Source: an uncultured Candidatus Peribacteria bacterium
Lineage (GTDB): Bacteria; Patescibacteriota; Gracilibacteria; UBA4473
Direction: 5' to 3'
NCBI GenBank assembly: GCA_964459435.1
Contig: CAYWLU010000003.1
Location: 1-46,694 of the forward strand
Length of the DNA: 46,694 nt
The notes beneath the pieces were generated by a model, which saw nothing but the letters and a program-made list of their open reading frames with translations, ran no database searches and was not told where the DNA came from. Positions 864 through 45,640 of this stretch are shown piece after piece. Both the position numbers and the translations under genes were made by a program. Position 1 is the first letter of the stretch; each line of letters starts with the position of its first letter.

Positions 864-3800
864 ATGGCGAAAAAAACGCTTCAATTCCCTGCAAAGCTGA
901 CCCCAACCAAAGAAGAAGGTGGTCGGTATTTTTTTACAGATGTAGAAAGAGACTTTCCTTTTCCTGATTTAATTGAGGTTCAAACTAGATCCTACAATTG
1001 GTTTTTAGATAATGGAATTAAGGAGCTTTTAGATGAAATAAATCCTATCGAAGATGCTACTGGGAAAAAATTAAGATTAGAAATTAAGGGTTATGAAATT
1101 GAGGAACCTAAATATAATATTCTAACTTGTAGAGAAAAAGGACTTTCTTTTGAGTCTATTGTACGAGGACATGTGGCCTTAACCAACTTAGAATCTGGGG
1201 AAATTAAAGAGCAAGATGTTTATTTTGGGCAAATTCCTCGAATTACAGAACAGGGAACTTTTATTGTTAATGGAATAGAAAGAATTATTGTTTCACAAAT
1301 TGTGAGAAGTCCTGGGATTTTCTTTGCTAAAAATTCAGCCTTACCAGGGAAATATACTGCCAAAATGATTCCTAAACGAGGAGCTTGGTTAGAGGTAGAG
1401 TCTGATAAAAAAGGATTAATTTGGATTAAGGTTGATAGAAAAAGAAAAATACCGGTAACCATGTTTCTTCGAGCTTTCGGTTATTCTACGGATAAAGAAA
1501 TTTTGGATCTTTTTAAAGACCAAACGAAGGGATTAGAAGAAAATTCTATTACTAAAACTTTAGCTAAGGATGAGTCAGAAAACGAGAAGGATGCTTGGCA
1601 AGGAGTATATAAAAGAATCCGTCCTGGAGATTTAGCTACTCCAGACAATGCTCGAAACTTTATTGAGGATGTGTTTCATAATCATCGAAAATATGATTTA
1701 GGACCTATCGCTCGTTACAAGATTAATAAAAGATTTGATTTGAAAACTAAAGATAATGCAAAAGGACGGATATTTCGGATAGAAGATTTTATTGCTATGA
1801 TTCGTGAAATTTTGATTCTTAATGAAGGTCAGGGAGTGGGTGCAGATGATATAGATCATTTGGCTAATAGAAGAATTAGAGCAGTAGGAGAATTAGTACA
1901 AAATAAATTTAGAGTTGGATTGCTCCGTACAGAACGAATTGTGCGAGATAGAATGTCTATTGTGGATTTAGAAGAAGTAACGCCAACCCAAATTGTTAAC
2001 TGTCGTCCAATTACGGCGGCGATGCATGAATTTTTTGCGAGTTCACAACTTTCGCAGTTTATGGATCAAACAAATCCTTTGGCAGAACTAGAACACAAAC
2101 GAAGAATTTCTGCGATGGGTCCAGGAGGACTATCTCGAGAACGAGCTTCTTTTGAAGTACGAGATGTACATCCTTCTCATTACGGACGAATTTGTCCGGT
2201 AACTACTCCAGAAGGACCAAATATTGGTTTAGTGTTACATTTGGCTTCTTATGCTCGAGTAAATGAATATGGATTCATTGAAACACCTTATAGAACAGTG
2301 GCACATACTTTGCCTAATGATGGTTTGTCTTGTGTTGGTAGAAGAGCGGGAGAAGATATTAAAGATGGTCGAAAGATTATAGTTAAGAAAGGAGAGGAAA
2401 TAAACGACAAACTTGCTAAAGATATCAAGAAATTAAAGGACTATAAAGAGGTGCCTGTTTGGGCTTATATTACGGAAGATGTAAATTATTACGATGCTGA
2501 GGCAGAAAAAGACATGTGTATTGCTCAGGCTAATACAGTTCTTAATGAAAAAGGAGAATTTGTGAAAGAAATGATTTCTGCCAGAGAGAACTATGAACCT
2601 GGTTCTTATGATGAAAATAAAATTACATATATAGATGTTTCTCCAAAACAGTTGATTTCTTTATCTACAGCTCTTATTTCTTTCTTAGAGCATGATGATA
2701 ATACGAGAGCCTTGATGGGGTCTAACATGCAGAGACAAGCAGTGCCTTTAATTAAACCAGAATCCCCAGTTATTGGAACTGGAATGGAACGGATTACTTC
2801 ACATGATCAATGTATTCATGCTCCAGAAGCTGGAGAAATAAAGTATGTGGATGCTAATGAAGTAATATTTGTTGGAAAATCTGGGAAAAAAGTAGTTTTC
2901 CCTATTAGGAATTTTTATAGAACAAATCAATCGACCTGTATCACTCAACGAGCAGTAATAGAATCTGGAGAAAAGGTTAAAAAGGGAGATGTTATAGTAG
3001 ATGGAGCTTCTGTGCAAAATGGAGAATTAGGACTTGGAAGAAACTTGCTTGTGGCTTATATGTCTTGGAGTGGATATAACTTTGAAGATGCCGTGATTGT
3101 TTCTGACCGAGTTGTTAAAGAAGGGCTTTTTGATTCCGTGCATATTGAAAAATATGAATTGGATGTTAGAGATACGAAACTTGGACCGGAAGAGCTAACT
3201 TCAGATATTCCAAATGTAGCGGTGGCAAAACTAAAAGACTTAGACGAACAAGGGTTAGTTAGAATTGGAGCTACGGTATTAGCTGGGGATATTCTAGCAG
3301 GAAAAGTTACTCCAAAAGGAGAAACAGAACTTACAGCAGAAGATAGATTGCTTCGGGCAATTTTTGGAGAAAAAGCTCATGATGTAAAAGATTCTTCGCT
3401 TCGTTTGCCGCGTGGATCTGGAGGAAAAGTAATCGCTGTTTCTATTTTAGATAGATCAGAAGGAGATGATTTACCAACTGGTGTAATTAAAAGGATTCAA
3501 GTAAAAGTAGCTCAATTACGACATTTGGAAGCAGGAGATAAGATGGCTGGAAGACATGGAAATAAAGGTGTTATTTCTCAAGTTATTCCATCAGAAGATA
3601 TGCCTCACATGGAAGATGGAACTCCAGTAGATATTATTCTAAATCCACTTGGTGTTTCTTCTCGAATGAATATTGGTCAGATTTTAGAGACACATTTAGG
3701 AATGGCTGCTAAAAAAATGGGAATTAAAATAGCAACGCCAGTGCTTCATGGAATTAAAGTAGATAAGATTCGAGAGTTTTTGAAGGCTAATGATTTTCCA

Positions 3801-4454
3801 GAGGATGGAAAATTTCAATTATATGATGGAAGAACGGGGGATTCTTTTGACCATCCAACAGTAGTTGGAATAGTTTATATGTTAAAACTAATTCATTTGG
3901 TGGAAGACAAGATGCATGCTAGATCTGTTGGACCATACTCTTTAGTTACTCAACAGCCATTTGGAGGTAAAGCTCAAAATGGAGGGCAGAGATTTGGAGA
4001 AATGGAAGTTTGGGCATTAGAAGCTTATGGAGCCGCTCATATTCTGCAAGAAATGCTGACAATTAAATCAGATGATGTTCATGGTCGAGCAAAAGCTTAT
4101 GAAGCGATTGTGAAAGGAGAACCTATTGAACTTGTTTCTGTTCCAGAATCTTTCAATGTGTTAATTAAAGAACTTCAAGCACTTTGTTTGAAAGTAGAGC
4201 TTTTGCAAGACGGAGAAATTGCTGAAGGAGTTCTTACTCCAGAAAGTAAAGAAGAGGAAGGAGTGGTTAGAGAAAGAGAATTAATAGATGAAGCTGCTGA
4301 AGTTAAAAAAGTAGTTGACGAAGCAGAGGCTTCTAAAATGACTATGGAAGGAGATGAGACCGGAATAGAAGATGAAGATGAAGATGAAGATGATATGGAT
4401 AAAGAAGTGGTGGTAGACGATGCTGAAATAGATGAATTAGAAAAAGAAGAATAA
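864..4454 (+). CDS. rpoB: DNA-directed RNA polymerase beta subunit
   Basis: 1196-aa ORF with beta-subunit blocks NMQRQAVPL, GDKMAGRHGNKGV and GGQRFGEMEVWALEAYGAA; ~70-aa strongly acidic C-terminal tail. Confidence 0.97.
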   Translation: MAKKTLQFPAKLTPTKEEGGRYFFTDVERDFPFPDLIEVQTRSYNWFLDNGIKELLDEINPIEDATGKKLRLEIKGYEIEEPKYNILTCREKGLSFESIVRGHVALTNLESGEIKEQDVYFGQIPRITEQGTFIVNGIERIIVSQIVRSPGIFFAKNSALPGKYTAKMIPKRGAWLEVESDKKGLIWIKVDRKRKIPVTMFLRAFGYSTDKEILDLFKDQTKGLEENSITKTLAKDESENEKDAWQGVYKRIRPGDLATPDNARNFIEDVFHNHRKYDLGPIARYKINKRFDLKTKDNAKGRIFRIEDFIAMIREILILNEGQGVGADDIDHLANRRIRAVGELVQNKFRVGLLRTERIVRDRMSIVDLEEVTPTQIVNCRPITAAMHEFFASSQLSQFMDQTNPLAELEHKRRISAMGPGGLSRERASFEVRDVHPSHYGRICPVTTPEGPNIGLVLHLASYARVNEYGFIETPYRTVAHTLPNDGLSCVGRRAGEDIKDGRKIIVKKGEEINDKLAKDIKKLKDYKEVPVWAYITEDVNYYDAEAEKDMCIAQANTVLNEKGEFVKEMISARENYEPGSYDENKITYIDVSPKQLISLSTALISFLEHDDNTRALMGSNMQRQAVPLIKPESPVIGTGMERITSHDQCIHAPEAGEIKYVDANEVIFVGKSGKKVVFPIRNFYRTNQSTCITQRAVIESGEKVKKGDVIVDGASVQNGELGLGRNLLVAYMSWSGYNFEDAVIVSDRVVKEGLFDSVHIEKYELDVRDTKLGPEELTSDIPNVAVAKLKDLDEQGLVRIGATVLAGDILAGKVTPKGETELTAEDRLLRAIFGEKAHDVKDSSLRLPRGSGGKVIAVSILDRSEGDDLPTGVIKRIQVKVAQLRHLEAGDKMAGRHGNKGVISQVIPSEDMPHMEDGTPVDIILNPLGVSSRMNIGQILETHLGMAAKKMGIKIATPVLHGIKVDKIREFLKANDFPEDGKFQLYDGRTGDSFDHPTVVGIVYMLKLIHLVEDKMHARSVGPYSLVTQQPFGGKAQNGGQRFGEMEVWALEAYGAAHILQEMLTIKSDDVHGRAKAYEAIVKGEPIELVSVPESFNVLIKELQALCLKVELLQDGEIAEGVLTPESKEEEGVVRERELIDEAAEVKKVVDEAEASKMTMEGDETGIEDEDEDEDDMDKEVVVDDAEIDELEKEE

Positions 4455-4467
4455 TAATAGTCTGAAG

Positions 4468-4542
4468 GCGCGTATCGTATAGTGGCTATTACACGGCCTT
4501 GCCAAGGCTGAGATACGGGTTCGACTCCCGTTACGCGCTCCA
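4468..4542 (+). tRNA. tRNA-Gly (anticodon GCC), CCA encoded
   Basis: Acceptor GCGCGTA/TACGCGC, anticodon stem CGGCC/GGCTG with loop TTGCCAA, T arm ACGGG-TTCGACT-CCCGT, discriminator T, CCA. Confidence 0.9.
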
Positions 4543-4725
4543 AAAGAATTCCGATATACCTTTTGGGTATAACGGAATTCTTTTTGTATCGTGATGAGAA
4601 CCCGTATTTTTGCGAAGCAAAAATGGGTTCGATGAGCCGAAGAGAGGAAAGAGAGCTTGCTCTCAATTTCCGAGCGAGGTGAAACGACTAAACGAAGCGA
4701 AGGAGTATTCCCGTTACGCGCTCCA
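4543..4725 (+). mobile_element. ~165-nt mini-element (CIME/MITE-like) ending in a 17-nt direct repeat of the tRNA-Gly 3' end
   Basis: TCCCGTTACGCGCTCCA at 4709-4725 is identical to 4526-4542. GGGTTCGA at 4625-4632 repeats the T-stem/T-loop start. The block at 4633-4708 is ~83% identical to 14850-14923 (reverse strand). Confidence 0.45.
4546..4585 (+). terminator. intrinsic terminator after tRNA-Gly
   Basis: GAATTCCG/CGGAATTC outer stem plus TATACC/GGTATA inner stem, followed by TTTTT. Confidence 0.75.
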
Positions 4726-4729
4726 TAAT

Positions 4730-4757
4730 TTGACAAACTAAATCTCAGAAATATAAT
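4730..4757 (+). promoter_or_regulatory. near-consensus sigma-70 promoter (TTGACA-N16-TATAAT)
   Basis: TTGACA at 4730-4735, 16-nt spacer, TATAAT at 4752-4757. Confidence 0.6.
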
Positions 4758-4764
4758 CAATACA

Positions 4765-4845
4765 ATGAAGGACTTTGAATTCACAGTTCAATCAAATAAC
4801 AAGCCGCAGCTGCCGGTTTCTTCATTATATCCCATGCGGTACTAA
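4765..4845 (+). CDS. 26-codon leader ORF or small RNA (MKDFEFTVQSNNKPQLPVSSLYPMRY)
   Basis: The ATG lies 7 nt after the -10 box (leaderless geometry). The ORF ends 31 nt before a terminator that sits 25 nt upstream of the OCD start. Confidence 0.3.
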   Translation: MKDFEFTVQSNNKPQLPVSSLYPMRY

Positions 4846-4876
4846 ATTATATATAAGATCAATTAGTAATATTTAG

Positions 4877-4900
4877 CCCGCATCTAGCGGGATTTTTTTT
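4877..4900 (+). terminator. intrinsic terminator / attenuator upstream of OCD
   Basis: CCCGC-ATCTA-GCGGG followed by A and T8. ATGCGG at 4834-4839 can alternatively pair with CCGCAT at 4878-4883. Confidence 0.65.
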
Positions 4901-4925: not shown

Positions 4926-5924
4926 ATGAAAATCATAACCTCAAACGAAATCGCTAAACTTTCTCTAGATACATTATTAGAAGATGCCTTTAAGTTTCTA
5001 GAAGAAGATCTTAAATGCTGGGAAAAGTTTCACAAAAGTCCGCGTCATGCTGTGTATTTTGATCACGGAGTTTTTGAACTTATGCCTTGTGCAGATGACC
5101 AGTTTTATACTTACAAATATGTAAATGCTCATCCTGCGAATCCTCAACAAAATAAAATGTCTATTGTGGCAGTAGGAATGTTGGCAGATATAGAAACGGG
5201 ATATCCACAGCTTTTTTGCGATATGACTATTCTTACAGCAATACGTACTGCTGCAACTTCTGCGATTGCAGCAAAGCATTTAGCACGTGAAGATTCTTCG
5301 GTATTAGGAATAATCGGAACTGGTGCTCAATCTGAATTCCAGGTTTACGCAATGAAACAGTTGTTTGATATAAAAACCATTCGTTATTTTGATCGTGATC
5401 CAAAAGCTATGAAAAAGTTTGCAAATAATTTTGCAGAAAGTGGTATGGAATTAATTGCTTGTTTGCATGGGACAGAAGTTGTTGAAGGAATAGATATTCT
5501 TACCACCTGTATTTGCGAAAAAACGCATGTGGAGTTATTTCCATATTCGGCTATTAAAAATAATAAGGGATTATTTATTAATGCCATAGGTGGAGACTGT
5601 CCTGGAAAAACAGAACTAGATCCAGAAATAATGCGTAAGGCACGCATTATTGTGGAATTTTTCGAACAAACTAAATATGAAGGAGAAATTCAGAATCTTG
5701 AGGCTGGTTCATTTACGTATAATGAATTATGGGAAATTATCCAAGATCCGAAAAAAGGTCGCAGTAAAAAGGATGAATTAATTGTATTTGATGCGGTTGG
5801 ATTTGCCCTTGCTGATTTTTCTGTAACGAGAATGTTATATGAAAAAGGGATTGGTAAAGATATGAATATTTTACCTTCAACGAAAGATCCAAAAAATTTA
5901 TTTTCAATTTTTAGGACTTTATAA
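4926..5924 (+). CDS. ornithine cyclodeaminase / mu-crystallin family protein
   Basis: 332 aa; MTILTAIRTAATSAIAAKHL block and Rossmann-type GIIGTGAQSEFQ. Confidence 0.8.
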   Translation: MKIITSNEIAKLSLDTLLEDAFKFLEEDLKCWEKFHKSPRHAVYFDHGVFELMPCADDQFYTYKYVNAHPANPQQNKMSIVAVGMLADIETGYPQLFCDMTILTAIRTAATSAIAAKHLAREDSSVLGIIGTGAQSEFQVYAMKQLFDIKTIRYFDRDPKAMKKFANNFAESGMELIACLHGTEVVEGIDILTTCICEKTHVELFPYSAIKNNKGLFINAIGGDCPGKTELDPEIMRKARIIVEFFEQTKYEGEIQNLEAGSFTYNELWEIIQDPKKGRSKKDELIVFDAVGFALADFSVTRMLYEKGIGKDMNILPSTKDPKNLFSIFRTL

Positions 5925-12509: not shown

Positions 12510-14546
12510 ATGAAAAATTTATTACCAGAAAATGCGGGATCCGAATTAATTGAGATCCCTGTCGCAGAAACAAAATACTTAGATGTTCGAGGGAATCTAG
12601 AGGAAGTTCCTACTAGTCTAAGAAATTTATTGATTTCCTTGGAAGATAGTTCAGCTGATTCAGTTGAGTTGGACACAGATTACAGGAATGAATTTCTGAC
12701 ACTTGCCGGAAATGAAATATATGAAGCTAAATTATCTGAACTCATAGATTCTGAAAGTACTTCATATACTATAGCTGAATTTGATGAAAGCTATTTAGGT
12801 CATCATTCTCTCATAATAGTTAGACAACTTCTTCCATATCTAGAATCTATTGGAATTAGTGGTACGGTGTCTGATAACGGGGGGGAGCTGAACTTTCCTA
12901 CAGTAGGATATATAGCCTTTGATATTGATGGAAAAATTCAAATATGTGATGATTCCCGCCTTATAGACAAAGATATCTTTCATTATTTGTCTTGCCACAT
13001 AAGTCAGGATCTTGCTGTTGTAGTAAGGCGAAATAATCAGTTTATATATGCAAGTGATATATCAAGATTTGAAAAAACACCAAAAAGCAAAGAAGGAAAG
13101 AATGCTTTTTTAGGGGCAGATATTATTGAATTTCACTCAGTAGCTCCGAATTTCGGCTCTCAACTTGGATATCTATTTCAAAAAATAATTGAATCTTTTG
13201 AAACAGGTAAACTTGGTATGCTAGTTGTGGATCTTTATGGGCAAAATATTTTTAAAGACGAAGAAGGAAATGCAATACATCGTTTTGAAAGAGATAAATT
13301 TATTCCTTTAAAAGGAGATAATGGTGAATTATTAGGATTTATAGGAGTTGCCGATGTGTTTTTTCAAAATGTTGAAGAAAAACTTAGTCCATACGAAGGA
13401 GGTGAATATTCTATTACTCCGATAACCCAGTTGGATATACAAACAAAGGATTTTTCTAAGAGAGTTGCTGAAATCACTAGTGACAATCTTGTAGAAGAAC
13501 TTCTCGATGAGGGGATAACAAGTGAACGGAAAATACAAATAGTTCAGAAAATATTAAATAATAAAGATCAATATCAGGATGAAGTTTTAGAAATATCAGC
13601 AAAATTGAACAGAGAGCGTTTTGGTGGACGACTTAATTTATATGGGATTAGTTATATTTCGGATAAATGTGTTAATGATTGTACATATTGTGGACACCAT
13701 GCGCAGTTAAGAACAGATAGGGATACTTTAACTGAAGAAGAAATGAGGCTGGATTTCAGTGTTGTTTTGAATAATAAACCAGATGAATTTTGTATTCTTG
13801 CAGGAGAATATCCGGGAGGAATAGAAGATTATTGTCAGGCGCTAAGAGTCCTTAATACCATTGATGATGAAACGGGAAATAGTCTTCAACGCATATCATT
13901 AAATGTTGCGCCATTATCCGAAGATGGTTTTAAGACATTAGTTGCTGCTCATTCAGGAAAAATTCCACTTCAATATAGATTATTTCAGGAAACTTATGAT
14001 CAAGAGCAATATGCAAAATATCATAAAAAAGGACCAAAAAAGGATTTTCAGTTTAGAGCGGAGGCACAAGATAGAGCCTTGAAAGCTGGATTTGATGAAG
14101 TTGGTTTGGGGGTTTTAATGGGTCTAAATACTAGAAATAATCCCTATCTTAATTTCGGTCACGATTTTGAGATATTATCTCTTATAAGACATGCTTATAA
14201 ACTAAAGGAAGATCATGGAAAATTTCCATCTGGAATTTCGATTCCGAGACATCAGCCAGTATCAGGATATTCTTTTGAAACACCTAATCCTATAGATGAT
14301 GACTTGTATGTTTTTTATCATGCATTATTGAAATTAGTTTTACCAGAGACGAAATTAATAATTACAAGCAGAGAAACACAGGAGTTAATTCAAAGGGTTG
14401 AGCCTTATGTGAATATAAGAGATTTAGCTCCGCGTCCTGGAGTTGGTGGTAATTATAGATCTAGCACAAACTTCCAAAATGAATTGGGAGATGCACGAAG
14501 TGCTGCAGAAATAATTAAAGACTTAAAAGAAAGACTTCTTTTATAG
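12510..14546 (+). CDS. radical SAM enzyme: ThiH/HydG/NosL-type (aromatic amino-acid lyase family) C-terminal domain fused to an unknown ~370-aa N-terminal region
   Basis: SDKCVNDCTYCGHH (CX3CX2C), FQETYDQEQYAKYHKKGPKKDF, VGLGVLMGL and IITSRETQ parallel ThiH blocks. No motif recognised in residues 1-320. Confidence 0.75.
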   Translation: MKNLLPENAGSELIEIPVAETKYLDVRGNLEEVPTSLRNLLISLEDSSADSVELDTDYRNEFLTLAGNEIYEAKLSELIDSESTSYTIAEFDESYLGHHSLIIVRQLLPYLESIGISGTVSDNGGELNFPTVGYIAFDIDGKIQICDDSRLIDKDIFHYLSCHISQDLAVVVRRNNQFIYASDISRFEKTPKSKEGKNAFLGADIIEFHSVAPNFGSQLGYLFQKIIESFETGKLGMLVVDLYGQNIFKDEEGNAIHRFERDKFIPLKGDNGELLGFIGVADVFFQNVEEKLSPYEGGEYSITPITQLDIQTKDFSKRVAEITSDNLVEELLDEGITSERKIQIVQKILNNKDQYQDEVLEISAKLNRERFGGRLNLYGISYISDKCVNDCTYCGHHAQLRTDRDTLTEEEMRLDFSVVLNNKPDEFCILAGEYPGGIEDYCQALRVLNTIDDETGNSLQRISLNVAPLSEDGFKTLVAAHSGKIPLQYRLFQETYDQEQYAKYHKKGPKKDFQFRAEAQDRALKAGFDEVGLGVLMGLNTRNNPYLNFGHDFEILSLIRHAYKLKEDHGKFPSGISIPRHQPVSGYSFETPNPIDDDLYVFYHALLKLVLPETKLIITSRETQELIQRVEPYVNIRDLAPRPGVGGNYRSSTNFQNELGDARSAAEIIKDLKERLLL

Positions 14547-14830
14547 TTTTTGTACTAGAAAGCCCTGGGTAAGGCTTAATAAACTGCCCAGAGGTGATGT
14601 TTAATTTATGTTAGTTCTCTTAATAATTATAAAAAACCTGCTACACCACAAGGGGGAACTGCGGTCTTGAAAAATTAAATATTACAAAATAAGCCCCTCG
14701 ACTTTGCTCGGGGCACTCATTCGCCTGCTTTCTTTTACAAATGTATAACTTCCGATGATAGTGCTAGTGGTCGAAGACCATGAGCGACCGACCCTTCGGC
14801 CTTGAGCTATGTCGAAAGGAGGGAGTCGAA

Positions 14831-15013
14831 TGGTGGAGGTGGCGAGAATACTTCCTCACTTCGTTCGGTCGTTTCACCTCATTCAGAAATAGAGAGCGAG
14901 CTCTCTTTCTTCATTTCGGCTCATTGAACTCTGCGAGTTAAATTTCACTTCCTGCTACGCAGGAATAAAAAACAGGCCTATCCCCGCAAGGGGGACATGC
15001 CTATTTTTTTAAC
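14831..15013 (-). mobile_element. ~165-nt mini-element downstream of ssrA ending in a 19-nt direct repeat of the tmRNA 3' end
   Basis: TGGTGGAGGTGGCGAGAAT at 14831-14849 is identical to 15014-15032. A T-arm fragment CGCAGAGTTCAAT (reverse complement of 14924-14936) precedes a block (14850-14923) homologous to 4633-4708. Confidence 0.45.
14966..15002 (-). terminator. intrinsic terminator after tmRNA
   Basis: On the minus strand, AGGCATGTCCCC-CTTGC-GGGGATAGGCCT followed by TTTTTT. Confidence 0.7.
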
Positions 15014-15439
15014 TGGTGGAGGTGGCGAGAATTGAACTCGCGTCCAAAGAGGAAATCTATTTTTATCTACGAAGCCTAGTTCAGTTGGTTATTTCTCTTG
15101 ATTAGAACTGAACAAAAAACAAAAGAAGATGACCGAATATTTTCCTTAAAAAGTTGGTCAAACTTTATAAGTAAGGATCCTTAATTTTAGAAAGTAAAAG
15201 ACTATGGATCAACATCTAATACTTCCTGGCGAGCCAAAAGGCTCAAGCCAAGTTAGGCGTAAGCATAAGCTACTGGTGCTGGAGCAAAAGCTCTGGCAAC
15301 ATTTTTAGCAAAATTGCTTACACGTGCAACAAATAAATTTTTTGCATTTAAGTTTGTTCATCGGATATACCGGCAGATGAACGTGCCGAACTCGCAAAAA
15401 ATAAATTTCTAAATCTCTCTGTCAAAGCCGAGCACCCCC
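15014..15439 (-). ncRNA. ssrA: tmRNA (one-piece), 426 nt
   Basis: 5' GGGGGTG pairs with 3' CACCTCC-A-CCA, including a G3:U pair; GGCTTTGACAG near the 5' end; T arm GCGAG-TTCAATT-CTCGC. The tag frame ends GCT TAT GCT TAC GCC TAA (..PVAYAYA). Confidence 0.9.
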
Positions 15440-41836: not shown

Positions 41837-42274
41837 ATGGCTACAGACAAAAAAGCTCGTCACGAAAGTCGCGTAACAGCTGTAAAGGTGCTATTTACTT
41901 TTTTGGCACGGGAAGAGAAGATTGAACTTAAGGAAGTATTAGAACATGTAGTATCTTTAGAAGATAAGAAAGATGATGATTTTGCGGAATCTTTACTACA
42001 GAATGCCATAGAGAATTTAGGAAAAATTAGATTGGTTATTAAGGCACTTGCCGTGGAGTTTGCTTTTGAAAAAATTGCCCCAATTAATAGGGCAGTATTG
42101 ATCTTGGGGATCACAGAACTCAAGTTCTTTGATACTCCTCCTATTGTAGTTATCAATGAATATATTGAGATTGCTAAAGCTTTTGGAGAAGAAAAATCTG
42201 CTTCCTTTGTGAATGGAGTGTTAGATAGTTTTAGGATAAATATTGGTAAACAGCGAGAAGAAGAAAAGGAATGA
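41837..42274 (+). CDS. nusB: transcription antitermination factor NusB
   Basis: ARHESRVTAVKVLF.. and VVINEYIEIAKAFGEEKSASFVNGVLD. Confidence 0.85.
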   Translation: MATDKKARHESRVTAVKVLFTFLAREEKIELKEVLEHVVSLEDKKDDDFAESLLQNAIENLGKIRLVIKALAVEFAFEKIAPINRAVLILGITELKFFDTPPIVVINEYIEIAKAFGEEKSASFVNGVLDSFRINIGKQREEEKE

Positions 42275-42313
42275 TTTTTGATTTTTCTCCTAAAAAACGT
42301 TAAAAATAGAGCA

Positions 42314-43012
42314 ATGAAAAATTTTGAAGACTTATTTGGGAAGATTGGTTTTGGGATCAAGAACCAACAGCTTCTTATAGAAGCTTTTACGCATCGTTCT
42401 GCTGTTAATGAATATTCAGATATTGCAGTGCATAACGAAAGATTAGAGTTTCTAGGAGATGCCGTATTAGAACTTATTGCGACAGAATTTTTGTACGAGA
42501 AGTTTCCAGAGAAACCAGAAGGGGAATTAACGAATCTTCGTTCTGCTTTAGTTAAGGGAGAGAATCTATCAGAAGTAGCCAGGAAACTTAATTTAGGAGA
42601 ACTTCTTTTCTTGTCTCACGGAGAAGCAAAATCTGGAGGAGCAGAGAAGGACTATATTCTAGCTAATACAGTAGAAGCTCTCATTGGAGCTATCTATTTG
42701 GATTTAGGAACAGAAAGGGCTAAAGAATTTATTAGTAAGTGGATTTTAGTTGATCTAGAAGATATTATTAAGTACGGAAAGCACATAGATGCTAAATCTG
42801 AATTTCAGGAGTTGTCACAAGAGAGGGTAGGAATTACGCCTCACTATGAAGTTGTGTCAGAAAGTGGACTAGATCATGAAAAAACATTTGTTCTAGCGGC
42901 TTTTTTAGAAGACAAAAAGGTAGGAGAGGGGACAGGAGGATCTAAAAAAGAAGCTCAGGTTGCGGCTGCGGCAGATGCTTTAGTCCACAAGGAACATTGG
43001 CTGGAGCAATGA
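42314..43012 (+). CDS. rnc: ribonuclease III
   Basis: NERLEFLGDAVLEL catalytic signature and a C-terminal dsRBD. The ATG at 42314 is preferred over 42278. Confidence 0.9.
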   Translation: MKNFEDLFGKIGFGIKNQQLLIEAFTHRSAVNEYSDIAVHNERLEFLGDAVLELIATEFLYEKFPEKPEGELTNLRSALVKGENLSEVARKLNLGELLFLSHGEAKSGGAEKDYILANTVEALIGAIYLDLGTERAKEFISKWILVDLEDIIKYGKHIDAKSEFQELSQERVGITPHYEVVSESGLDHEKTFVLAAFLEDKKVGEGTGGSKKEAQVAAAADALVHKEHWLEQ

Positions 43013-45472: not shown

Positions 45473-45640
45473 TCGTCGCTGGATGACTTCATTAACTTCG
45501 TCCGCCAATGGCGGACTTGTTTTATTTCGTGATCGCTCCTCTCACTCACATGGAGGCTTTCGGATTCCTTAGTCGGAGCATGTATGTATCACATGCTCTG
45601 AAACGTTTCGAACCAGGTTAATATAAGTCTCCGACATGAG
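45473..45640. repeat. GC-rich tRNA-flanking repeat, copy C
   Basis: TCGTCGCTGGATGACTTC at 45473-45490, hairpin GTCCGCC-AAT-GGCGGAC at 45500-45516, block TTCGTGATCGCTCCTCTCACTCACATGGA at 45526-45554, hairpin GAGCATGT..ACATGCTC at 45576-45598. Confidence 0.6.

Follow-up and report, generated by a model that had tools for sequence, protein, structure and literature searches.

What lies between a tRNA gene and a second, displaced copy of that gene's own 3ʹ end? The question is raised by a contig of 46,694 nt (the window) from an uncultured Candidatus Peribacteria bacterium. An intact tRNA-Gly(GCC) gene at 4468–4542 (+), placed alike by ARAGORN and Rfam (61.4 bits), is followed there by a short unit that ends in a copy of the tRNA 3ʹ end. 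A second unit of the same kind follows the transfer-messenger RNA (tmRNA) gene, ssrA, at 15014–15439 (−), on which the two programs also agree (94.7 bits); both target genes scored as intact. A reading made from the letters alone (the sequence-only reading) had taken such units for intact non-autonomous elements or, alternatively, functional RNAs. Our analysis suggests a two-layer structure produced by site-specific recombination in the T loop, in which the unit is a cassette without cargo and a 76-nt block within it can be exchanged; about half of our confidence rests with this reading. The region is identical in an independent assembly of the same organism (L001; loci of other assemblies are cited below by such handles), so the structure is not an assembly artefact.

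Downstream of tRNA-Gly the order of features is terminator, palindromic hairpin, GGGTTCGA, 76-nt block and 3ʹ-end copy, and we recovered each of them as first described. The intrinsic terminator opens the unit (4543–4587, +; hairpin 4543–4583, fold −21.1 kcal/mol, z = −6.0, then a run of T), and hairpins homologous to it, with compensatory changes, are found in L004 and L032. The left module follows (4598–4632, +). Its hairpin at 4598–4630 (−15.3 kcal/mol, z = −5.2), noted earlier as a bulged stem, is present and can be described more precisely as a palindrome in which the T-arm 5ʹ half occurs twice, once inverted and once direct. The inverted copy, GAACCCGT (4598–4605), is the reverse complement of T-arm positions 49–56 and pairs with the GGGTTC of the direct copy, GGGTTCGA (4625–4632), into which the 3ʹ strand of the hairpin runs; the inner hairpin ATTTTTGC-GAA-GCAAAAAT (4606–4624) separates the two. 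Immediately after T-loop nucleotide A58 comes the purine-rich 76-nt block, of type 1a (4633–4708, +), with a central hairpin at 4646–4671 (z = −2.7) and a match to the type-1 family at E = 2e-17 (nhmmer). The unit closes at 4709–4725 (+) with an exact copy of tRNA-Gly positions 60–76, including CCA. The 17-nt repeat reported before is exact, and it is effectively 18 nt long when T4708 is counted as an ancestral T59. The displaced copy has T59, like the tRNA-Gly genes of relatives, whereas the window's own gene has C59 (T loop TTCGACT), as a swapped-in 3ʹ end predicts. No open reading frame (ORF) was found inside the unit.

On the minus strand, the ssrA unit repeats this order of terminator, hairpin, GAGTTCAA, block and 3ʹ copy. 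A terminator-like site at 14966–15013 begins it. The left module (14924–14965) consists, by sequence and folding, of a hairpin, TTCCTGC-GTA-GCAGGAA (14965–14949), the inverted TAACTCGC (14940–14933) and the direct GAGTTCAA (14931–14924), and it fits the T arm of tmRNA, not that of tRNA-Gly. The second copy of the type-1a block lies at 14923–14848 (nhmmer E = 3.5e-15), close to the 14850–14923 given in the sequence-only reading, and a 19-nt copy of the tmRNA 3ʹ end, ATTCTCGCCACCTCCACCA, lies at 14831–14849, its first two bases overlapping the end of the block. An exact recount bears out the 13 differences counted by hand: the two blocks are identical at 63 of 76 bases (83%) and colinear from the first base to the last. 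This similarity stands well above background, since elsewhere in the window, on both strands, 76-mers reach 36/76 at best, and the maximum over 20,000 shuffles is 37/76. The covariation claimed for the central hairpin is also present, its outer pair being G-C at tRNA-Gly and A-T at ssrA.

The same arrangement recurs in relatives. A survey by rpoB and relA gene neighbours, two degenerate pattern scans and an nhmmer profile yielded 13 instances in about ten genomes labelled Gracilibacteria, located 3ʹ of tRNA-Gly(GCC), Gly(TCC), Lys, Ser(GGA) and Val genes and of the tmRNA gene. These six kinds of target gene support the view that we are dealing with an ordered module and not a random deletion scar. 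All share a terminator, an inverted and a direct T-arm 5ʹ half (3–25 nt apart), a purine-rich block of 62–99 nt, and the 3ʹ end of the gene. In all instances the insert starts after T-loop nucleotide 58 and the 3ʹ copy resumes at 59/60, with G59 lost at the Val and Lys sites. The inverted half is GAACCCGT for Gly, TAACTCGC for tmRNA and GAATCCGC for Lys, and the 3ʹ copy matches its own neighbouring gene every time, down to lineage-specific base changes such as the CACGCGC shared by gene and copy in L006. Members of the block family were also found in two other settings: within the T loop of a full-length tRNA-Val copy that stands in tandem with an intact tRNA-Val (L011), and, as a type-1 block, beside a GTTCGAAC repeat in a cargo array far from any tRNA (L048). 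The exact block core GAGGTGAAACGACNNAACGAAG, too specific a pattern, had no match in genome and viral collections. Degenerate patterns for the block tail gave real copies only in Gracilibacteria metagenome-assembled genomes (MAGs) and one metagenome contig; the remaining matches were rejected as GC-rich or coding noise. At ~5335–5400 of L030 (−), just upstream of the intact gene, lies a degenerate 5ʹ two-thirds of tRNA-Gly that breaks off at the T arm, the second case of a duplicated tRNA 5ʹ part after L011.

The two halves of the unit have different histories of similarity: blocks cluster by genome, and the palindromes of the left module cluster by locus. Within a genome, blocks at different genes are 83% identical (window Gly versus window tmRNA) or 92% identical (G57 Gly versus G57 Lys), whereas at orthologous tRNA-Gly sites the identity falls to 67% (window versus G57 and window versus L032). 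Left modules show the opposite pattern, with identities at the same locus of 98% (window versus L032, Gly), 88% (window versus L004, Gly), 93–98% (window versus L048, ssrA) and 97% (L032 versus L035, Ser), and of 49–75% across different loci. Likewise, the blocks of the two L048 ssrA units start with the same sequence and differ from those of the window, and the homology between the window and L048 breaks off sharply at the T-loop position of the left module. This sharp breakpoint, together with the colinearity of blocks within a genome, argues for copying or exchange of the whole block at a defined site. Given that blocks resemble one another within a genome and differ between orthologous loci, with the palindrome kept by locus, these comparisons mark the 76-nt block as an entity of its own, inserted into the unit's pseudo-T-arm at T-loop position 58/59.

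Units are also present or absent, and differently ordered, between close relatives. In L049, the closest relative by RpoB, the ssrA site is empty and the gene ends 5 nt before the stop codon of the ADI gene; in L002, from the same MAG, there is no unit in the 310 nt after tRNA-Gly that the contig covers. Two units follow ssrA in L048. The distal one is the orthologue of the proximal ssrA unit of the window (98% over 53 nt), and the ssrA-proximal terminator of L048 equals a distal remnant in the window, left by the terminator of a second unit at 14625–14654 (−), over all 30 nt (blastn, 30/30). Since proximal and distal matches are swapped, the order of units has changed between the two genomes. 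Arrays at tRNA-Gly vary in the number and type of their units (L004, L006, L030, L035), and truncated or degenerate copies occur in the third copy of L004, in L030 and L035, and in the second unit of L048.

Some units are accompanied by cargo. Between tRNA-Gly and the unit of L032 (13964–17405) lies a Gabija-like pair, an OLD-family TOPRIM nuclease and a UvrD-like helicase; a degenerate third copy of the tRNA 3ʹ end (TCCCATAGGGTGCTCCA) marks the right edge of this insertion, in which there is no recombinase. Among the L032 copies the distal one is exact and the one nearer the gene degenerate. The array in L048 holds a radical-SAM gene, hicAB and fic, with contiguous T-arm-like repeats between them. 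In the window, the interval from the ADI gene to the ssrA array holds a gene for a 678-aa radical-SAM protein (12510–14546, +). This gene is missing from the same interval in L048 and L049 and is, on this comparison, probably acquired cargo, although no bounding repeat was found around it. Genes for AbiEii, Cas9, Cas1 and Cas2 lie on the 3ʹ side of tRNA-Ser(GGA) in L002 (2640–8802) and L004 (1876–8379), with hicAB in L004 only; the gene list of L032 has none of these on that side of tRNA-Ser. This region is another defence island at a tRNA that bears a unit in other genomes. Relative to rpoB, the unit-bearing tRNA-Gly of L030 (5228–5302) is inverted compared with other genomes, as are the unit-bearing tRNA-Ser genes of L032 (9424–9513) and L035 (9447–9536), and an inverted tRNA-Ser 3ʹ fragment at 13987–13999 of L035 lies 14 nt from a tRNA-Gly 3ʹ copy. 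These inversions and the inverted fragment suggest recombination between T-arm sites of different genes.

How might such a structure arise? In the first layer of the mechanism that we propose, the stretch of ~165–180 nt from the gene's 3ʹ end to the downstream copy would be a cassette with neither cargo nor recombinase, comparable to a cis-mobilisable element, sitting in a tandem array of the sort formed by integrative islands at tRNA and tmRNA genes. The crossover would fall at or next to T-loop nucleotide 58/59. Incoming DNA would bring a new 3ʹ end and terminator, which would leave the target gene intact, and the old 3ʹ end would be shoved downstream. With a recombinase acting in trans, units could be lost, gained, reordered or loaded with cargo. 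The second layer would be the pseudo-T-arm carried in the unit (inverted and direct 5ʹ half, then 3ʹ half), with the block exactly in its loop and copied or exchanged whole between such sites within a genome. The anatomy, its recurrence, the variation in presence and order, and the contrast between genome-wise similar blocks and locus-wise similar left modules are seen directly in the sequences; the enzymatic recombination in trans, the enzyme concerned, and the movement of blocks by transposition or gene conversion we infer. The empty ssrA site, the swapped order and the versions with cargo fit a non-autonomous cassette moved in trans; to this extent the idea of an intact non-autonomous element holds, but it needs amending, since there are two layers and the block is a separate entity.

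Several observations weigh against this mechanism. As noted from the start for integrases, no recombinase, integrase, transposase or reverse transcriptase is encoded among the ORFs of the 46.7-kb window; nor was a recombinase linked to a block-bearing unit, or an excised or circular form, seen anywhere in the loci analysed. Neither block nor left module was found on phage, plasmid or viral contigs: a BLAST search of the element against phage and plasmid records gave no match, and two matches of the left-module pattern in viral contigs were judged to be chance. A canonical attR site has a contiguous T arm, and the block that parts the halves and the inverted 5ʹ half are both left unexplained by a standard integrase; no mini-unit was found without a block, and contiguous pseudo-T-arms occur only in the cargo array of L048. 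The block ends do not resemble the attP of a serine or tyrosine recombinase, being both purine-rich, without inverted symmetry and with only 0–2 nt of flanking identity. Finally, the left module is strongly kept across species whose RpoB proteins are ~83% identical, and such conservation could reflect a function other than recombination.

What enzyme could act at these sites? The repeat had been compared with the footprint of tyrosine integrases. The footprint is indeed of the integration type, but the sole recombinase found beside a comparable site in a relative is a large serine recombinase: a 539-aa protein with the domains Resolvase, Recombinase and Zn_ribbon, encoded on the reverse strand in L051 and abutting ssrA. 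In NCBIfam it matches XisF and CcrB best, in both cases below the curated cut-offs, and L050, with the same ssrA, is without it. As called, the L051 ORF runs antisense through the last 92 nt of ssrA (3121–3212), and an attachment site may for that reason lie within the 3ʹ end of the recombinase gene. A tyrosine recombinase in L028 (6–785, +), 160 nt beyond a tRNA-Ser unit, belongs to a family of 259–270 aa with homologues (P0121–P0240) that are 81–91% identical among the best 120 matches. They lie mostly on contigs of ~1–5 kb, and few carry names; those that do are labelled Kerfeldbacteria, Paceibacterota, Moraniibacteriota, Vogelbacteria, Spechtbacterales and Actinomycetota. The family is far more conserved than RpoB, which suggests recent horizontal spread. 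Its best NCBIfam matches, an integron integrase and XerA, are both below the cut-offs. We rejected this recombinase as the trans factor because close homologues occur in non-tRNA contexts; in a Paceibacterota population the gene is near no tRNA.

Could the block alone be the mobile entity? It would then be a miniature structure-guided transposable element, of the REP/PATE type related to IS200/IS605 or a single-stranded DNA element, inserting 3ʹ of TTCRA in T-arm-like hairpins by means of an enzyme encoded elsewhere in the genome. Pseudo-T-arms would be safe landing sites, because insertion into a single real gene would be lethal. We regard this as unlikely, while recognizing how much it accounts for: the precise insertion after nucleotide 58 for all block types and targets, in fixed orientation and without a clear target duplication; the full-length colinearity of copies within a genome; the type-1 blocks in the complete tRNA-Val T loop of L011 and beside GTTCGAAC in L048; the compensatory changes in block hairpins; and the difference between blocks at orthologous sites with conserved flanks. 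However, no transposase was found, the 46.7 kb hold only two copies and none outside a T-arm context, and the block lacks both terminal inverted repeats and a clear hairpin on the right. The window copies are in opposite orientations, which, if they lie on the same replication arm, does not suit a lagging-strand-specific mechanism, and the loss of nucleotide 59 at Val and Lys is unexpected for clean peel-and-paste transposition. A related reading, to which we give less credence, treats the block as a miniature mobile cassette that reads the shape of the T arm, and the palindrome and 3ʹ copy as a maintained decoy landing pad. Such a pad would spare the one essential tRNA or tmRNA gene by diverting blocks and larger defence islands, and the unit would be a selected device for genome protection and gene capture, not debris. 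Doubtful too, and placed below the decoy, is the view that the units are inert, immobile decay products of old islands whose blocks are homogenised by gene conversion between remnants. Small genomes have a strong deletion bias, which favours this view, as do the truncated and degenerate copies in arrays (L004 third copy, L030, L035, L048 second unit) and the lack of an observed mobile form. Independent deletions would not, however, give colinear 76-nt blocks with identical end points at two genes; flanking homology of ~8 nt on the left and a few nucleotides on the right is too little for RecA-type conversion that ends at T-loop positions; unit order is swapped between close relatives; and the conservation of left modules far exceeds what neutral DNA should show.

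That same conservation (88–98% for the left module, in species with RpoB ~83% identical) speaks for the proposal of a functional RNA gene or cis-element, either a sense transcript that mimics the 3ʹ end of its neighbour or a small antisense RNA whose first 18 nt are complementary to the tRNA 3ʹ end and whose pyrimidine-rich remainder stops at the block hairpin. Compensatory stem changes, and the L032 pattern of an exact distal and a degenerate nearer copy, agree with it. For the antisense form, the opposite-strand block hairpin with its T/C-rich run scores as terminator-like in both window copies, and a weak promoter at 4779–4750 (9/12 matches) faces the block hairpin. Searches gave the sequence-only reading's functional RNA no positive support: over 4590–4725 there is no credible Rfam 15 match even at E = 10, only tRNA and tmRNA reaching thresholds, and the fold of the whole unit has z ~ −1.8. 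Pairing of the block tail with the 3ʹ copy, tried as a covarying dyad or pseudo-T-stem, is no better for own than for shuffled partners (own −75.5 versus permuted mean −82.4), and the 3ʹ copy has no 5ʹ acceptor partner, so the unit cannot be a tRNA-like minihelix. Moreover, the unit stands behind a strong terminator with no convincing sense promoter, is missing at ssrA of the close relative L049, and its block is not conserved at orthologous loci. We think an RNA function less probable than decay. Least probable by far is a T-loop intron spliced from the tRNA transcript, which for the window is largely refuted. Archaeal tRNA introns at non-canonical positions do spread between tRNA genes within a genome, and the L011 block lies in an otherwise complete tRNA-Val whose 58-nt 5ʹ part is identical to that of its intact neighbour. 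Yet that copy lacks CCA and is mismatched at A2-A71, an intact copy of the gene accompanies every case, L011 included, and the 5ʹ two-thirds of the tRNA are missing in the window and 11 other cases. At 76 nt the block is too short for self-splicing, and inspection of folds revealed no bulge-helix-bulge at the junctions.

Other interpretations of the block were tried and rejected. Inspection spoke against coding potential, the frames not being conserved between copies and indels separating subtypes. A hammerhead-like reading (GUGAUGAG...GGGUUCGA) failed: C3 and A14 do not fit it, and L004 has not kept the motif. Pairing of the middle of the block with the acceptor strand occurs in both window copies, but the copies at Lys and Val have not kept it. 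A reverse-transcriptase stop at m1A58, with the 18-nt copy acting like a retroviral primer-binding site, fits the boundary; there is no reverse transcriptase, and the sense orientation and left half-site would stay unexplained.

Which described systems do cassettes of the proposed kind resemble? The units can be viewed as relatives of integrative elements targeted to tRNA and tmRNA genes, the nearest described being tmRNA/tRNA islands and their cis-mobilisable derivatives. In the ssrA islands of Dehalococcoides (McMurdie et al. 2011, PMC3146451), the repeat starts midway along the T loop, a conserved motif lies directly upstream of each repeat, a CcrB-family serine recombinase of ~540 aa is encoded on the reverse strand beside ssrA, and the islands form tandem arrays in which members without integration genes are read as cis-mobilisable. 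The likeness extends to the ssrA target, a repeat from nucleotide 58/59, a block tail ...CGAAGYGARGRAGTAT upstream of the repeat and, in the relative L051 though not in the window, the 539-aa large serine recombinase in the same position. In contrast to those islands, the window units are gene-less and only ~165–180 nt long, their block family occurs at several tRNA genes as well, in a host of a different phylum, and the conserved block comes after a palindromic duplicate of the T-arm 5ʹ half, which makes the T arm look split.

More generally, tRNA/tmRNA islands, T-loop prophages and tycheposons (Hackl et al., bioRxiv 10.1101/2020.12.28.424599) share with these loci a full gene followed by partial 3ʹ copies; in the islands and tycheposons, as here, repeated integration pushes older elements outward, remnants build up, and cargo is defensive or adaptive. 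Unlike in those islands, no integrase lies in or beside the window units, and an insert parts the T-arm 5ʹ half from the partial copy. Cis-mobilisable elements (CIMEs) of the Streptococcus integrative and conjugative element families, and cassettes resembling the staphylococcal cassette chromosome (SCC) but lacking ccr, likewise have attachment-site repeats and no recombinase or transfer genes; they lie in tandem with autonomous elements or replace them, and are presumed to be moved in trans, as we infer here. Known CIMEs are kilobases long and carry genes, whereas these units comprise only terminator, palindrome, block and repeat. Integron cassette arrays offer another parallel, with promoter-less cassettes, structured recombination sites that have a variable central part, and one recombinase in trans. 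Here, however, the integron cores GTTRRRY/RYYYAAC are absent as such (the palindrome, GAACCC...GGGTTC, departs from their consensus), no integron integrase lies close by, and the site derives from the anchor gene itself. For the block alone, REP/RAYT elements, IS200/IS605-derived PATEs, IS1397 in REP loops and Rickettsia palindromic elements are comparable in being small, forming hairpins, being similar within a genome and having a defined, structured target. The block departs from these in its low copy number, in the tRNA T-arm mimic that serves as target and in having no terminal repeats. Measured against IS200/IS605 features, there is insertion after TTCGA/TTCAA, no TnpA in any locus, one clear and one weak hairpin, and opposite orientations; measured against miniature inverted-repeat transposable elements, terminal inverted repeats are lacking and flanking identity is 0–2 nt. 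The new features are how small the cassettes are, the palindrome-bearing split pseudo-T-arm, the block exchangeable at nucleotide 58/59 and the presence in candidate-phyla-radiation bacteria.

What is the significance of these units? In bacteria of the candidate phyla radiation, genomes are tiny and recognised mobile elements few, yet defence genes vary between close relatives, and unit sites in these bacteria coincide with defence-gene turnover. The units, part of a lineage-wide system, look like pared-down relatives of those mobile islands which normally bring defence genes to such sites, and mark where this exchange happens, 3ʹ of tRNA-Gly, tRNA-Ser and ssrA. Palindrome, block and 3ʹ copy give sequence handles for finding hotspots in fragmentary metagenome assemblies, whose contigs often break there. 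The split T arm, like the genome-wise homogeneity of the 76-nt insert, poses a puzzle about T-loop-specific recombination.

The window around the units is core chromosome, with rpoB, relA, dnaA, dnaN, mfd and purA among others, and the host RpoB is nearest to proteins labelled Candidatus Gracilibacteria. Despite that label the host likely uses the standard genetic code, because the window ORFs are intact under table 11; we rejected code 25 on the same ground. An in-frame TGA alone parts nusB from rnc (41837–43012), and code 25 would fuse them. The rpoB product has a long acidic tail at its end, and what follows the gene (864–4454) is not rpoC but tRNA-Gly and the gene for an ornithine cyclodeaminase (4926–5924). 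Right after the Gly 3ʹ copy, at 4730–4900 (+), is a perfect sigma-70 consensus promoter (TTGACA-16-TATAAT, 12/12) with a 26-codon ORF (4765–4845) downstream and then a terminator (4877–4900), a set that could be a gene for a small protein or small RNA; TTGACA stands at the equivalent place in L023. A second repeat family lies directly after the CCA of tRNA-Val, of other tRNAs, of 3ʹ copies and of ssrA (window 45473–45640, +; L006 from 13858, +; L032 from 17844, +; L011 ~2750–2650, −; L050 from 12675, +). It starts with TCGTCGYTRG..ACTTCAYT, after which come a terminator and a stretch rich in pyrimidines; its opposite strand is purine-rich, with the T-arm-like GGTTCGAA at the end, like an inverted block.

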